Shown here one piece after another: positions 1 through 4,646 of a stretch of DNA of 4,646 nt (its first letter is position 1; the number at the start of each line of letters is the position of its first letter). The notes beneath the pieces are model-generated. The model ran no database searches. It was not told the origin of the DNA and worked only from the letters and a program-made list of their open reading frames with translations. A program made the position numbers and the translations under genes. The DNA is from a virus. Its lineage: Duplodnaviria; Heunggongvirae; Uroviricota; Caudoviricetes. The stretch is taken from IMG/VR virus record IMGVR_UViG_2541047713_000005; one strand, written 5' to 3'.

Positions 1-1506
1 TCTGCAAGCGCGGCGGCTGCTTCTGCCACTGCATCAGCTAACAGTCAAAAAGCAGCAAAAACCAGTGAAACCAACGCAAAGGTGAGCGAAACAGCGGCTG
101 CGAACTCAGCGAAAGCATCGGCAGCAAGCCAGACGGCAGCTAAAGCAAGCGAAGATGCAGCCAGAGAGTACGCAAGCCAGGCTGCGGAGCCGTATAAATA
201 TGTCTTACAGCCGCTGCCTGATGTGTGGATACCATTTAACGATTCGCTGGATATGATTACGGGCTTTTCGCCGTCATATAAAAAAATTGTTATTGGTGAC
301 GATGAAATAACGATGCCTGGCGACAAGATTGTTAAGTTTAAACGTGCATCGAAAGCAACCTATATTAACAAATCTGGTGTGCTGACAGAGGCTGCCATTG
401 ACGAGCCACGATTTGAACGTGATGGCCTGCTTATTGAGGGGCAAAGAACTAATCTTCTGCTTAATTCAACAAATCCATCTAAATGGAATAAGTCAGGCAA
501 TCTGGAACTCACAGAAATATCCACGGATTCTTTTAATTTTACTTATGGGAGATTTACTGTAAAAGATACTCTTATTGGTCAGACAAGTGCTATTAATATC
601 GTAACGGTTTCTGGCAGTAAAGGGTTTGATGTCACAGGTGATGAAAAATATGTGACCATTTCATGCCGTGTAAGAAGTGATGTTGAAAATGTAAGGTGTC
701 GTTTAAGATTTGAACACCATGATGGTTATACTTACACTTTTTTGGGAGATGCTTACCTCAATTTATCAACACTTGTAATTGATAAAGCTGGTACTGCTGC
801 AGACCGTATTATTGCAAAGGCTGTAAAAGATGAGGTTACTGGTTGGATTTTCTATCAGGCTACAATTAATGCACTAGATACAGAGAGCATGATTGGTGCG
901 ATGGTTCAATACGCTCCTGTAAAAGGTTCAGGCACAGCATCTGGAGACTATCTGGATATCGCAACTCCACAAGTGGAAGGTGGATCAAGTGCTTCGTCAT
1001 TTATTGTAACTGATATAACTGCAAGCACTCGCGCAAGCGATATGGTGACAGTCCCAATCAAGAATAACCTTTATAATCTTCCTTTTACGGTTCTTTGTGA
1101 GGTACATAAGAACTGGTATAAAACGCCAAATGCAGCGCCACGTGTTTTTGATACCGGCGGTCATCAAACCGGAGCGGCTATTATTCTTGGCTTCGGTCGT
1201 TCAACAGATTACGACGGATTTCCTTATTGCGATATTGGAGGAGCTAACAGACGGGTAAACGAAAACGCATCGCTTGAAAAAATGGTTATGGGGATGCGTG
1301 TAAAGTCAGAGCAGTCTACGTGCTCAGTAAGTAACGGGCATATATCCAGCGAAACAAAAACCACATGGTCCTGTATTCAGAACACCGCAATTATCCGTAT
1401 TGGAGGCCAGACTACAGCCGGGTTACGTCATTTATTTGGTCATGTCAGGAATTTCAGAATATGGCACAAGGCATTGACTGATGCTCAGGTGGGGGAGTCA
1501 ATCTAA
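1..1506 (+). CDS. Phage tail fibre protein, 5'-partial (start lies upstream of window); Ala/Ser-rich repeat shaft, distal domain ending in a LamG/concanavalin-A-like signature
   Basis: Frame 1 is open from nt 1 (SASAAAASATASANSQKAAKTSETNAK...) with no stop until TAA at 1504-1506. The 'M' at 82 in the ORF track is an in-frame GTG, not a real start. The N-proximal A/S/T/E/K-rich imperfect repeats are typical of side-tail-fibre shafts. The C-terminus ...LRHLFGHVRNFRIWHKALTDAQV resembles the C-terminal consensus of LamG-like lectin domains (recalled, not searched). GC-rich for the first ~200 nt, AT-rich afterwards. Confidence 0.85.
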   Translation, partial: SASAAAASATASANSQKAAKTSETNAKVSETAAANSAKASAASQTAAKASEDAAREYASQAAEPYKYVLQPLPDVWIPFNDSLDMITGFSPSYKKIVIGDDEITMPGDKIVKFKRASKATYINKSGVLTEAAIDEPRFERDGLLIEGQRTNLLLNSTNPSKWNKSGNLELTEISTDSFNFTYGRFTVKDTLIGQTSAINIVTVSGSKGFDVTGDEKYVTISCRVRSDVENVRCRLRFEHHDGYTYTFLGDAYLNLSTLVIDKAGTAADRIIAKAVKDEVTGWIFYQATINALDTESMIGAMVQYAPVKGSGTASGDYLDIATPQVEGGSSASSFIVTDITASTRASDMVTVPIKNNLYNLPFTVLCEVHKNWYKTPNAAPRVFDTGGHQTGAAIILGFGRSTDYDGFPYCDIGGANRRVNENASLEKMVMGMRVKSEQSTCSVSNGHISSETKTTWSCIQNTAIIRIGGQTTAGLRHLFGHVRNFRIWHKALTDAQVGESI

Positions 1507-1787
1507 TGAAAGATTTAACACTCAAATTTGCCGACAGGGCCGACTTTTCGGCCTTTATGGATAGCACTGGCTATTATGATGACGAGTCGATGCAGGATGA
1601 TATTCTTATTGACGTGATAGGTAACGTGTACAAAGAAACCGGAGAACTGACTGAAGATGGCGAACCGGTATGTGTTAAGGAAGACGGATATTTTGTAAAC
1701 GTGCGCATCATTAATGATTCGCAAATATCGTCATTATTCGATGAATACGTGGTTGCTGTTGAGCATCAACTTCGTGGCTGGATGTGA
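1506..1787 (+). CDS. Hypothetical small acidic protein (93 aa), translationally coupled to the upstream fibre gene; possible fibre chaperone or adaptor
   Basis: ATG at 1506-1508 overlaps the fibre stop (TAATG). Uninterrupted 93-codon frame, acidic composition (many D/E). The downstream gene starts 10 nt after its TGA stop, giving an operon-like arrangement. No family recognised by eye. Confidence 0.6.
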   Translation: MKDLTLKFADRADFSAFMDSTGYYDDESMQDDILIDVIGNVYKETGELTEDGEPVCVKEDGYFVNVRIINDSQISSLFDEYVVAVEHQLRGWM

Positions 1788-1796
1788 GGAAGAAAA

Positions 1797-2837
1797 ATGG
1801 CTACATCGACAGTAATTCCTGATGACATCAAAACGCAAAAATCCGACGTTAGCAAATTAAAAAACGATCAAGGAAGCTACGCAACAAAATTATATGTAGA
1901 CAGCAAAGATAAATTCGTTGGTGACTGCAATGTAATCTATGATCAAAAAACATTGCCAACAACTGGAACTATATTTGGCGGTAAGCTCCGCTTAACTCAC
2001 AGGACTGGTGGAACGGAGGACGCGTATAGTGAACTATATCCCAAAAAAAATATAGATGGTACTAGTAACACAATGGCGCGCCTTAACCTGAACGATAACG
2101 GGACAAACATTTGCTGGGACTTTACCAACCTTTATGGCGGTACGATGATTTTTCCCGGTAGCGGCGGATACCTCAAAATGGGTAACTGCCTTATGTCATA
2201 CAGCAAGCGTGGAAGTAACGCGCTTATTAAATTTGATTACACCGACACATTACAGATCAAATATGCCAATCATGGGTCAACCATGACATTAAACACACAG
2301 GGAACCGCTTATGCTGGTGTTACTGCTCAATTGTGGGGCAACACCAGCCGTCCTGTTGTTTATGAAGTCGGTGTTGATGGTGGCGCTTATATGTTCTATG
2401 CGCAGAAAAATACCGATAACACCTATATGTTAAGCGTTAATGGTGCATGTCATGCCACCGCATTTAACCAGCATTCCGACCGGGATCTGAAAGACAACAT
2501 TCAGGTGATCGATAATGCAACCGACCGCATCCGTAAAATGAACGGCTATACATACACGCTTAAAGAAAACGGTATGCCCTATGCTGGTGTCATTGCACAG
2601 GAAGCTCTGGAAGCAATCCCAGAAGTTGTAGGTTCCGCAATGAAATATCAGGACGGTGCAAGCGGATCGGAAGGTGAAGAAGGTGAACGTTATTACACAG
2701 TAGATTATTCTGGTGTTACTGGCTTGCTTGTTCAGGTAGCCAGAGAGTCAGACGACAGAATAACAGCACTGGAAGAAGAAAACGCAGAATTAAGACAAAG
2801 ATTATCTGCAATTGAGGCGGCGCTTGCGTCTAAATAA
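1797..2837 (+). CDS. Short tail-fibre tip / receptor-binding protein with C-terminal intramolecular chaperone (peptidase S74-type) auto-cleavage domain
   Basis: SD GAGGAAG at 1786-1792, 6 nt before ATG 1797. Residues ~170-215 (AQLWGNTSRPVVYEVGVDGGAYMFYAQKNTDNTYMLSVNGA) resemble the conserved distal segment of P2 gpH / T4 gp37-type fibres (from memory). Residues 227-232 S-D-R-D-L-K (Ser codon at 2475-2477) have the Ser/Lys i,i+5 spacing of the endosialidase-chaperone catalytic dyad. The C-terminal helix ITALEEENAELRQRLSAIEAALASK is typical of this domain. Confidence 0.85.
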   Translation: MATSTVIPDDIKTQKSDVSKLKNDQGSYATKLYVDSKDKFVGDCNVIYDQKTLPTTGTIFGGKLRLTHRTGGTEDAYSELYPKKNIDGTSNTMARLNLNDNGTNICWDFTNLYGGTMIFPGSGGYLKMGNCLMSYSKRGSNALIKFDYTDTLQIKYANHGSTMTLNTQGTAYAGVTAQLWGNTSRPVVYEVGVDGGAYMFYAQKNTDNTYMLSVNGACHATAFNQHSDRDLKDNIQVIDNATDRIRKMNGYTYTLKENGMPYAGVIAQEALEAIPEVVGSAMKYQDGASGSEGEEGERYYTVDYSGVTGLLVQVARESDDRITALEEENAELRQRLSAIEAALASK

Positions 2838-2864: not shown

Positions 2865-2879
2865 TTGGGTAGGATGAAA

Positions 2880-3173
2880 ATGGATATAACACCTTTCCTT
2901 CATGCGCTTTGTGCTGTGGCTGCGCAGCTACTGATTGGTCTTTTTACCGGGAACTGGGCTTACGGGGCGATAGCCGGTTGTACGTTCTTCATTGCGCGTG
3001 AACACACCCAGGCAGAATATCGCTGGATTGAAATGTTCGGGCATGGCAAGCGAATGAATATGCCGTGGTGGGGCGGTTTTGATCCGCGCGCGTGGGATGT
3101 GGCAAGCCTGATGGATTTTGCTGTGCCGGTGGTGGCGTGTCTGCTGGTCTGGCTGTTGGTTAATCGTGGGTGA
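2880..3173 (+). CDS. Hypothetical small integral membrane protein (~97 aa, 2-3 predicted TM segments)
   Basis: ORF open from TTG 2865; in-frame ATGs at 2874 and 2880. ATG 2880 has an AGGA (2871-2874) 5 nt upstream and is preferred. Hydrophobic stretches FLHALCAVAAQLLIGLF, AYGAIAGCTFFIA and LMDFAVPVVACLLVWLLV. About 55% GC, unlike the AT-rich fibre genes. The antisense ORFs over this region lack such features. Confidence 0.55.
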   Translation: MDITPFLHALCAVAAQLLIGLFTGNWAYGAIAGCTFFIAREHTQAEYRWIEMFGHGKRMNMPWWGGFDPRAWDVASLMDFAVPVVACLLVWLLVNRG

Positions 3174-3183
3174 AAAAAGGTGA

Positions 3184-3312
3184 GCTGTATATGCAACGGA
3201 GGAAGAAACTCCGTTGCTGGAAGCCTGGAAGAAGTATCGGGTGTTGCTGAACCGTGTTGATACATCAACTGCACCTGATATTGAGTGGCCTACGAACCCT
3301 GTCAGGGAGTAA
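3184..3312 (+). pseudogene. tfa: 3' remnant of a tail fibre assembly gene (tfa); no start codon, ~42 codons
   Basis: Frame 1 reads [42 protein letters not shown] directly after a TGA at 3181-3183, with no in-frame ATG/GTG/TTG. It matches the C-terminus of lambda-type Tfa (…[26 protein letters not shown]…, recalled). Relative to copy 2 it carries a 9-nt in-frame deletion. Confidence 0.75.
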
Positions 3313-3326
3313 TCATTGGGATTATG

Positions 3327-3359
3327 CCGCAGCACGTCTTAAGCAAGAACGTGCTGCGG
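3327..3359. terminator. Perfect 11-bp inverted repeat (hairpin) between convergent genes; possible bidirectional terminator or RNA-stability element
   Basis: CCGCAGCACGT (3327-3337), 11-nt loop, ACGTGCTGCGG (3349-3359), which are exact reverse complements. It lies 15 nt after the tfa-remnant stop and 8 nt beyond the methyltransferase stop (TAG, complement of 3367-3369). No U-tract immediately follows on either strand, so it is not a canonical intrinsic terminator. Confidence 0.4.
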
Positions 3360-3366
3360 TTGGATG

Positions 3367-4035
3367 CTATTTTTTCCCTGAAGCGGAAAACATTACTACA
3401 GTACCTTGAACCTTGGTTTTAACATTCTCGAAATGCTCTGAGAGTATATGTGTTAAGCCTTCTTCGGAATCTTTTGTGTTTGAAAAGATGCCTTTCTGAT
3501 TGTAAATGCGCATCAGTTTTTGACCGAAGCTATTGTGCACAACTCCATCGCCAAGAATTGTGGCTCCGTATAGAGTTCCATCGTCAGTTAAGGCCTGCGC
3601 CGCATTGCGTATTACACAGCTTTTTGTAGATATATTTCCAGGCAGGCAGTGAAGAAGGTAAAACATGGAAATGGAATCAAATTGACCATGTAACGCCGCG
3701 GGATAAGGTTCAAAAACATCATGGCTAATTTTATGTTTAATTTTTGATTCCCCAGCCCTTGTAGATGCCGCGTTCAGGCTAGCTTCGTTCAAATCCATTA
3801 AAGATATCAGACTACTCTCAGGTACGTGAGTAAGGTAAAACCCAGTTCCAACACCAATATCCAGATGGTTGTTACCTACATGTTCCAGAAAGTGTGGAAG
3901 AAGGTGTTCCTTTGTAGGACATCCCCATGCAAGCCGATTTGATACTCCCAAAACCCACCAGTCATAAAGCTTTAGGGTAAGTGGTGTGTAAATTTTAGCC
4001 CCATCATCTGTGTTTTTTTTCATTGATTTCACCAT
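3367..4035 (-). CDS. Class I (Rossmann-fold) SAM-dependent methyltransferase, probably not a DNA methyltransferase
   Basis: Motif I LDIGVGTGFY (the hh-D-h-G-x-G-x-G SAM-binding loop), a downstream acidic residue in ISLMDLNE, and a motif II-like FDSISMFYLLHCLP. No D/N/S-PP-Y/F/W motif IV. Stop TAG is the complement of 3367-3369. Two candidate starts: ATG at 4035 (no SD) and ATG at 4023 (GGTGA 5 nt upstream), the latter giving 218 aa and more likely. About 40% GC. Confidence 0.85.
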   Translation of the reverse strand: MVKSMKKNTDDGAKIYTPLTLKLYDWWVLGVSNRLAWGCPTKEHLLPHFLEHVGNNHLDIGVGTGFYLTHVPESSLISLMDLNEASLNAASTRAGESKIKHKISHDVFEPYPAALHGQFDSISMFYLLHCLPGNISTKSCVIRNAAQALTDDGTLYGATILGDGVVHNSFGQKLMRIYNQKGIFSNTKDSEEGLTHILSEHFENVKTKVQGTVVMFSASGKK

Positions 4036-4091
4036 GTTATAGTTTTATTTGTGAATTAAATCAATTATGGCGATGAATTACAAGGGGTTAA
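4036..4091. promoter_or_regulatory. AT-rich divergent intergenic region, putative promoters for the methyltransferase (-) and truncated tfa (+)
   Basis: A 56-bp AT-rich spacer between divergent starts. Minus strand: candidate -10 CATAAT (complement of 4064-4069) with a weak -35 TTTAAC 17 bp upstream. Plus strand: TATAGT at 4038-4043 and TTGTGA at 4049-4054 are possible elements. Read by eye, not scored. Confidence 0.3.
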
Positions 4092-4361
4092 ATGCTGCCG
4101 CAGCATAGCGATATTGAAATAGCCTGGTATGCTTCGATACAGCAGGAGCCGAATGGCTGGAAGACCGTCACCACACAGTTCTACATCCAGGAATTCAGTG
4201 AGTATATTGCGCCACTGCAGGATGCTGTAGATCTGGAAATCGCAACGGAGGAAGAAAGATCGTTGCTGGAGGCATGGAATAAATATCGGGTATTGTTGAA
4301 TCGTGTTGATACATCAACTGTACCTGATATTGAGTGGCCTGCAAATCCTGTCAGGGAGTAA
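4092..4361 (+). CDS. tfa: Tail fibre assembly protein, N-terminally truncated (89 aa; corresponds to the C-terminal half of lambda-type Tfa)
   Basis: SD AAGGGG 4-5 nt before ATG 4092. The C-terminus [53 protein letters not shown] aligns closely with the lambda Tfa C-terminus (…[53 protein letters not shown], from memory). Lambda-type Tfa is ~190 aa, so the N-terminal domain is missing. Confidence 0.8.
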
Positions 4362-4412
4362 TCATTGGGATTATGCCGCAGACACGTCGTATGCAGGAAC
4401 GTGCTGCGGTTA
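4219..4412 (+). repeat. Direct repeat copy 2 (tfa 3' end plus degenerate hairpin)
   Basis: Partner of 3178..3362. The hairpin at 4376..4409 keeps both arms but has one bulged A (4382) and a loop that differs at 3 of 11 positions. Confidence 0.85.
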
Positions 4413-4475
4413 GTTTGTGAGCTTTCGATAGTGGTTGTTATTTTTGCCCTTATTTGTTCCGGAGGCCATGGTTCA

Positions 4476-4646
4476 ATGGTCCGTCTGCCCCCTGTGGTGA
4501 TGTCAGCAAAATCAGCCACTGCGCGAACCACAATAGCCCGGGAAGATGCTGAAGATCACCAGGTAAAGCTGTCAGCGCAGAAACTGGAAGAACTGCTCGC
4601 ATCAATGGTTAAGGATGAGGTTGATCGCAATGATGGGATTTATTGA
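4476..4646 (+). CDS. Hypothetical small protein (56 aa from ATG 4476; the frame is open from TTG 4365)
   Basis: Frame ends at TGA 4644-4646. The 5' part of the maximal ORF overlaps the hairpin and tfa repeat, so an internal start is more plausible: ATG 4476 (GGAGG at 4461-4465, 10-nt spacing) or ATG 4500. The product is charged and probably helical (…AQKLEELLASMVKDEVDRNDGIY). No family recognised. Confidence 0.4.
   Translation: MVRLPPVVMSAKSATARTTIAREDAEDHQVKLSAQKLEELLASMVKDEVDRNDGIY

Follow-up and report, generated by a model that had tools for sequence, protein, structure and literature searches.

tfaX and other tfa-derived genes

Tail fiber assembly (Tfa) proteins of the lambda type have a length of 175–200 aa and are encoded directly 3' of their cognate fibre genes, in the same orientation. 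In Mu Tfa and Pam3 gp25, fibre binding is a function of the variable N-terminal beta-sandwich, and trimerisation that of the conserved C-terminal helices (PMC9608196). The C-terminus of Tfa is also found fused to fragments of terminase gpA, Nu1, Rz or tape-measure proteins in many predicted proteins (P0121, P0126, P0128, P0170), and TfaD of Escherichia coli K-12 (L106 5535–6098; TfaD/aaaD) opens with 42 terminase residues. Such fusions arise when a deletion or recombination links the 3' end of tfa to a 5' part of other origin, and in degraded prophages this 3' end seems to be a point at which deletions repeatedly end.

The closest described counterpart of the ORF analysed here is tfaX (b0563, formerly ylcE) of the DLP12 prophage of K-12. 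A literature search for "tfaX" and "ylcE" yielded only array or RT-PCR expression data, a genomic SELEX site and a match in an overexpression screen; the origin of the gene is not discussed in these reports. The tfaX mRNA was reported to be induced in mixed biofilms, and a deletion mutant showed normal growth and biofilm formation (PMC3646849). In the overexpression screen, tfaX raised the kanamycin MIC 3-fold (PMC12924614). Binding of both RpoD holoenzyme and H-NS was mapped by genomic SELEX to the spacer between ybcY and tfaX, in which a tfaX promoter (ATGGCA-15-TTAAAT) was predicted (PMC3946193).

Genetic context and orthology of the ORF

The window, i.e. the whole 4,646-nt stretch of DNA analysed, comes from a lambdoid Escherichia prophage, of which it forms the right end. 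Over all of its 4.6 kb it shares 98.9% identity with E. coli chromosomes. In these the region is preceded by gpJ, lom and a side-tail-fibre gene, and borders on a disrupted ompW beside the trp operon. The identified features are listed in Table 1.

Table 1. Features of the window and the evidence for them
Feature	Position	Strand	Basis or remarks
Tail-fibre gene	82–1506		PGAP: "prophage tail fiber N-terminal domain-containing protein"
93-aa ORF	1506–1787	+	Conserved phage ORF, phrog_1361
346-aa fibre protein	1797–2837		Peptidase_S74 intramolecular chaperone (E 5.8e-14)
102-aa membrane protein	2865–3173	+	Conserved phage ORF, phrog_1443
Left direct-repeat copy	3193–3361	+	Start-less 39-codon tfa 3' remnant (3193–3312) and post-tfa hairpin; repeat D1/D5
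ybcY-like class I SAM-dependent methyltransferase gene	3367–4035	-	Pfam methyltransferase domains; phrog_2132; cargo gene accompanying the ORF
AT-rich (27% G+C) spacer, divergent, between methyltransferase gene and ORF	4036–4091		Composition; conserved with the unfused cassette in L109
Shine-Dalgarno-like AAGGGG	4082–4087	+	4 nt ahead of ATG; inherited from the ~79-aa donor gene
Chimeric ORF, 89 codons and stop	4092–4361	+	ORF list; orthologue of K-12 tfaX
Codons 1–34, non-tfa, from the 5' end of a phrog_3893 (~79-aa) family gene	4092–4193	+	Family HMM, PHROGs, alignment with L109
Fusion junction in microhomology	4188–4199	+	CAGGAATTCAGT in the window; three-way DNA alignment and 20-nt sliding identity
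tfa-derived 3' part, codons 36–89 and stop	4197–4361	+	Covers the larger part of the conserved helical C-terminal domain of Tfa
Right direct-repeat copy	4242–4411	+	Last 40 codons of the ORF and post-tfa hairpin

Comparison with K-12 showed that the ORF is the orthologue of tfaX. The 61-aa TfaX protein is identical to residues 1–61 of the ORF product; the next codon is a stop in K-12 (W62stop), and the frame beyond it is still Tfa-like. In both loci a tfa copy is followed by an opposite-strand ybcY-type methyltransferase gene and then by tfaX, with the same order, spacer and ATG. The two loci differ in that tfaX is stopped at 61 aa and ybcY is a pseudogene in K-12, whereas both genes are intact in the window, and in that the upstream tfa copy, reduced to 39 codons in the window, is the 187-aa terminase::tfa fusion (TfaD) in K-12. 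Among the PHROGs, phrog_2341 covers the ORF end to end (1–88 of 88; E 6e-61), including the non-Tfa N-terminus, and the ORF shares with this group of TfaX relics the divergent ybcY-type methyltransferase gene across a 56-nt spacer. The ORF is a known tfaX-type relic, an ordinary prophage scar. Its biological weight is small: the locus is a widespread counterpart of K-12 tfaX, and the RefSeq pipeline already marks such loci as pseudogenes. The chimeric origin described below is a small new detail of a relic that was itself already known.

Chimeric structure of the ORF

An earlier note on this DNA described the ORF as a truncated and probably decaying tfa gene, which encodes the C-terminal half of a lambda-type Tfa and retains an RBS and a start codon. 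The ATG and a good Shine-Dalgarno (SD) sequence are indeed present, and a TAA lies in frame immediately 5' of the ORF. However, the extent of the Tfa part and the origin of the start signals both proved to be different from those proposed.

The Pfam profile Caudo_TAP (PF02413) matched the ORF product with an E value of 1.7e-24, residues 31–86 corresponding to profile positions 75–130 of 131, and an HMM that we built from 25 full-length Tfa proteins placed the same residues at its positions 119–174 of 175. The Tfa part aligns to residues 136–194 of a 194-aa lambda-type Tfa and to residues 123–174 of the 175-aa Mu TfaU (PDB 5YVQ), the sole relative with a solved structure. According to these alignments, the Tfa-derived share (residues ~32–89) is the last ~30% of a 194-aa Tfa, not its C-terminal half. 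Over this region (~58 residues) the ORF product is 76–85% identical to lambda-type Tfa proteins, which thus share with it their conserved C-terminal region, but at 89 aa it is far from their usual length, has no N-terminal domain for fibre binding and is missing the first half of the helical C-terminal domain. Since the chimera contains neither the fibre-binding domain nor a complete helical domain, a chaperone role appears unlikely. The placement of the ORF also differs from that of tfa genes, as it is not adjacent to the fibre gene, which ends at 2837. In the closest genome, PGAP annotates 4185–4361 as a pseudogene ("tail fiber assembly protein, incomplete, missing N-terminus").

The 5' part of the ORF has a different source. 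Residues 1–30 had no Pfam match, and our Tfa HMM gave no signal with residues 1–30 (E 0.07–0.17) or 1–36 alone; NCBIfam gave nothing for the ORF as a whole. A likeness of the N-terminus to lambda Tfa noticed by eye ("LP..W..NG.W") was rejected, as the HMM tests gave it no support. Residues 3–37 match phrog_3893, a family with 79 positions (E 3e-7), and an HMM of this family (76 members) matched residues 3–38 at its positions 2–37 (32.4 bits; E 4e-12). The family comprises 76 clusters of 76–82 aa (exactly 79 aa in 67 of the 76), with 51–98% identity. Its hosts belong to about ten enterobacterial genera, including Klebsiella, Raoultella, Enterobacter, Citrobacter, Salmonella, Cedecea, Pantoea and Trabulsiella, and one E. 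coli phage also carries a member.

An unfused form of the cassette was found in an IMG/VR contig (L109), in which a homologue of the methyltransferase gene is separated by the same divergent spacer, with identical SD and ATG, from an 80-aa ORF that has another C-terminus and precedes an S24/UmuD-like gene. The sequence GAATTACAAGGGGTTAAATG, the same as in the window, is found ahead of the unfused 80-aa gene both in L109 and in phage Ayreon, whose copy of the small gene is also unfused and has a stop codon, and in which most of the methyltransferase gene is deleted. The phrog_3893 family is thus the source of the spacer, the SD, the ATG and residues 1–34, and in L109 it shows the same divergent pairing with a ybcY-like methyltransferase gene. 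The ORF differs from full-length members of ~79 aa in that their conserved C-terminal 45 residues (...YVTTFRDVSTQEGENRTFQLFNPNGGL), with the conserved segments YVTTFRDVSTQEG and RTFQLFNPNGGL, are swapped for a Tfa tail. Four positions that the donor family conserves are also substituted in all fusion alleles (R23W, R30F, F31Y and V32I).

The point of fusion is clearly visible at the DNA level. Identity to three full-length tfa genes (including K-12 tfaD) is ~45% to the left of 4185 and 90–100% to the right of 4196, and so abrupt a change is a sign of a recombination junction and not of gradual divergence. The codons GTC CAG GAA CTG AGC AAG of the donor and ATG CAG GTA GCC AGT GAG of tfa correspond to ATC CAG GAA TTC AGT GAG in the window. 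A phmmer search of 1.84 billion representatives found no full-length Tfa parent with residues 1–30, and returned only ORFs of the same allele or deletion chimeras, i.e. terminase::tfa (P0121), an internally deleted Tfa (P0161) and Nu1::tfa (P0170). A distant blastn search with 4036–4195 against 50,697 phage records detected the same module only (15 records). The ORF is therefore an in-frame chimera with an RBS and ATG that come from the ~79-aa gene and not from tfa, which explains why a "truncated tfa" has good start signals. The other tfa-tail fusions differ in partner and junction, and most of them are rare; that of the window is a single, very widespread junction linked to cargo. The label "tail fiber assembly protein" on ORFs of 61–110 aa beside ybcY-type methyltransferase genes is misleading, because such ORFs are in-frame chimeras with the start signals of an unrelated ~79-aa gene.

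The phrog_3893 members themselves (e.g. L109 752–994, minus strand; L227 4001–4240; L231 714–956) are labelled "DNA polymerase V" in many NCBI records, which is probably a misannotation; the family had no Pfam or NCBIfam match. In every case another small gene comes after the donor gene: it is S24/UmuD-like in L109, 123 aa long in Klebsiella and 102 aa long in a Salmonella contig, which also encodes resolvase and partition (CbiA/SopB-type) proteins.

Distribution of the junction and its relation to the S74 fibre

The methyltransferase/ORF junction (query 3980–4440, coverage of at least 80%) was detected in 1,683 of 5,426 complete E. coli genomes. Among isolated phages that are viable, ev243, the PhiR series, Kati, Turner and 2G7b have the ORF with an identical ATG. 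A conventional fibre gene and a full-length tfa gene (191–194 aa) lie directly upstream of the ORF in PhiR68_2 and in P2-like prophages located near smpB (L007–L011), and in ev243 it is found beside the methyltransferase gene in a genome with no S74 fibre gene.

These data bear on the explanation given in the earlier note, according to which the intramolecular chaperone of the neighbouring fibre would make a separate Tfa redundant. In this model, the 5' half of the tfa gene of this prophage would have been lost in situ, an internal ATG and SD being left by chance. The 346-aa fibre protein does contain such a chaperone domain (Peptidase_S74), and the window has no full-length tfa gene. However, the ATG, the SD and codons 1–34 are not tfa sequence, the identical allele occurs in K-12 and, elsewhere, beside a classical Stf with full-length Tfa, and the membrane-protein gene, the tfa remnant and the opposite-strand methyltransferase gene separate the ORF from the fibre gene. 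In situ truncation is refuted by the chimeric junction and by this distribution, and we regard it as almost certainly wrong. A junction so widespread, and present also beside full-length Tfa, shows that the S74 fibre did not cause the truncation, which is an old junction inherited with the methyltransferase cassette. The tfa that was displaced by the S74 fibre module is the separate 39-codon remnant at 3193–3312, which adjoins that module; it matches Caudo_TAP positions 103–130 of 131 and is annotated by PGAP as a pseudogene.

In E. albertii NBRC 107761 the methyltransferase protein has exactly the same sequence (100% identity). Its homologues in Enterobacter (L020–L023; 61–64% identity) are chromosomal and have neither a tfa nor an ORF partner, so that the methyltransferase/ORF pair shows no deep conservation. 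This suggests that the prophage methyltransferase gene was captured from a chromosomal gene family. In L020, the sole one of these loci with ORFs listed, the homologue has a 677-aa peptidase-like gene next to it, and its surroundings contain no phage genes.

Allelic variation and coding potential

IMG/VR loci were sampled solely by the 20-nt SD-ATG pattern, which returned 80 loci, 77 of which could be scored for the ORF. The ORF had 88–89 aa and the canonical Tfa end in 51 of the 77; in 13 the Tfa C-terminus was replaced (101 or 110 aa), and in 12 the ORF was truncated (11, 28, 32, 61, 66 or 80 aa). About a third of the sampled alleles are therefore truncated or have a replaced Tfa C-terminus. 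In the same sample, the 2.5-times longer methyltransferase gene (222 codons) was intact at 73 of 78 loci and broken at five. Across all loci, at least eight independent disruptions of the ORF were identified.

Unique variants in codons 1–35 comprised 16 missense, 8 synonymous and 2 nonsense changes, versus a neutral expectation of 17.9 : 6.3 : 1.8, and this substitution spectrum fits neutrality. The methyltransferase variants (34 missense, 22 synonymous) look only mildly constrained. Such population tests have little power at a divergence below 2%, and nothing in them indicates constraint. Between the two ORF lineages, the 5' part differs by 2 synonymous and 5 non-synonymous changes (dN/dS about 0.55, from too few sites), and dN/dS of the tfa-derived part is 0.18, a value confounded by gene conversion. 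The C-terminal variants are block-wise (ANPVRE, TSPAE, EEPDTM, AVPVME), which together with this low ratio points to gene conversion from other tfa copies. Moreover, the ORF differs by 13.5% between the lineages and the methyltransferase gene by only 1.2%, which indicates recombination within the ORF.

The view of the earlier note that the gene is probably decaying is thus borne out by several independent nonsense or frameshift alleles, the replaced C-termini and the neutral-looking spectrum. That note had also allowed for an intact short Tfa variant, to be recognised by full-length homologues of ~90 aa. Homologues of 88–89 aa do exist (phrog_2341; 51 of the 77 loci), but they represent the same fusion allele of Escherichia/Shigella prophages and not an independent short Tfa family.

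As the same note had suggested, a small protein may still be produced, because the ORF has a genuine translation initiation region and is probably translatable. One may then ask whether a mini-protein consisting of the C-terminal helical hairpin of Tfa, expressed from the donor signals, acts in fibre assembly in trans, or as a dominant-negative on the Tfa oligomers of competitors, an effect from which the lysogen would gain protection. The initiation region is unstructured and was taken over from a genuine gene, the conserved C-terminal region is largely kept, and AlphaFold2 predicted three helices, of which those at residues 24–47 and 53–71 form the C-terminal region; the C-terminal domain of Tfa has been proposed to mediate trimerisation (PMC9608196). 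The ORF is intact at 51 of the 77 sampled loci, one diverged lineage (P0025; protein 82% identical) has kept exactly 89 codons, and viable phages (ev243, the PhiR series, Kati) carry it. The induction of tfaX mRNA in biofilms (PMC3646849) and the kanamycin MIC effect of overexpression (PMC12924614) also speak against a mere relic, as does the dN/dS of 0.18 in the tfa-derived part, although gene conversion from functional tfa genes can explain the latter. On the other hand, the unique part of the ORF varies in a neutral-like manner, nonsense alleles included, and the disruptions arose repeatedly. None of the most widespread alleles has the PDIEWP end (82 aa in P0023, found in 998 contigs; 101 aa in ev243; 61 aa in K-12), the first half of Tfa helix 1 is missing, the structure model is of low confidence (pLDDT 62.9), and the K-12 deletion mutant grows and forms biofilms normally (PMC3646849). 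We therefore consider a functional mini-protein unlikely. A domesticated decoy, in which Tfa oligomerisation helices expressed by the lysogen from the promoter and RBS of the donor gene co-assemble with the Tfa of superinfecting phages and block trimerisation of their fibres, would make the progeny of lambdoid, P2-like or Mu-like competitors less infective; such a role is conceivable but unsupported, and highly improbable. The product of the ORF is most likely functionless.

Expression signals

The region around the start codon is unstructured (MFE -10.9 versus a shuffle mean of -14.2 kcal/mol; z +1.18), and the plus strand 5' of the SD contains no good sigma-70 consensus. The window equivalents of the predicted K-12 tfaX promoter are at 4067–4072 and 4088–4093. 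As the -10 element overlaps the ATG, a transcript from this promoter would carry neither the SD nor the start codon. Read-through from the late operon may be another source of mRNA for the ORF.

Such a transcript (PMC3946193) would also suit an element acting as RNA instead of protein, either as the Rfam RNA IS009 or as a 3'-UTR-derived small RNA ending at the hairpin that follows the stop codon, which is stable (z -3.7). Positions 4115–4318 (+) match IS009 (RF02111) with 112.5 bits (E 3e-26). This score, however, lies under the gathering threshold of 117 bits, and the IS009 consensus reads as tfa coding sequence, with the match strongest where tfa homology begins, so that it merely restates the tfa homology. 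The O157:H7 matches to IS009 were set aside as lying inside same-strand genes (PMC5331693), and the literature searched contained no experimental RNA for the locus. An RNA-level function is therefore very unlikely.

Proposed history of the locus

We consider it probable that the ORF as a whole is a recombination scar, i.e. an in-frame chimera formed where a cargo cassette joined the 3' end of tfa. The ancestral cassette would have consisted of a ybcY-like methyltransferase gene and a ~79-aa phrog_3893 gene, divergent across the 56-nt AT-rich spacer. A crossover in the microhomology at 4188–4199 would then have fused the small gene, at its codon 34, to a lambda-type tfa at about codon 137. The spacer, the SD and the ATG are kept from the former, and the last ~55 codons, the stop codon and the downstream hairpin from the latter. 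The product lacks the fibre-binding N-terminal domain of Tfa as well as 45 of the 79 donor residues. Low-level translation, by late read-through or from the spacer, may occur, and the ORF drifts neutrally.

The methyltransferase gene is flanked by direct repeats of ~170 bp, composed of the tfa 3' end and the hairpin, with 90% identity. Such an arrangement would have arisen if the cassette was already located just downstream of another tfa. The conserved tfa 3' sequence that is shared by lambdoid and P2-like prophages may allow the cassette to move between them by homologous recombination, and the same sequence may drive the continual reshuffling of the 3' end of the ORF; the order of these events and the role of the repeats in mobility are what we infer from the present arrangement. 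The conserved 3' end of tfa might thus serve as a recombination landing pad, at which cargo genes such as the methyltransferase gene are inserted or moved between lambdoid and P2-like prophages, with tfa-tail scars left behind.

Other features of the region

The flanking repeats could mediate loss or transfer of the methyltransferase cassette via homologous recombination; in phage Ayreon the methyltransferase gene was lost by a different, internal deletion. The start of this gene is probably its fifth codon (ATG 4021–4023, minus strand), since this ATG is also the start of phrog_2132 (218 positions) and of the 218-aa homologues in Enterobacter, and the predicted promoter of K-12 ybcY has its -10 element directly against the first ATG.

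A strong hairpin follows both tfa stop codons, at 3325–3361 and 4375–4411 (+), with the stem CCGCAGCACGT...ACGTGCTGCGG (fold z -3.9 and -3.7, respectively). The left copy is followed by a T-run and gave a weak Rfam match to CssrB (32.6 bits). The post-tfa hairpin may be a terminator or a small-RNA 3' end; for the prophage sRNA PasB, matches to IS009 and IsrG in the flanks have been reported (2026 preprint). Another terminator-like hairpin, GC-rich, is located at 2844–2858, between the fibre gene and the membrane-protein gene.

An opposite-strand ORF at 4181–4531 (116 aa) had no family match. At the end of the window, the last 60 residues encoded by an ORF at 4365–4646 (+) match the tail-fibre families phrog_7703 and phrog_1141, and PGAP annotates the region 4412–4646 as a DUF4376 pseudogene with an internal stop. 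This ORF is another fibre-related remnant at the prophage end, beside the disrupted ompW of the closest genome.
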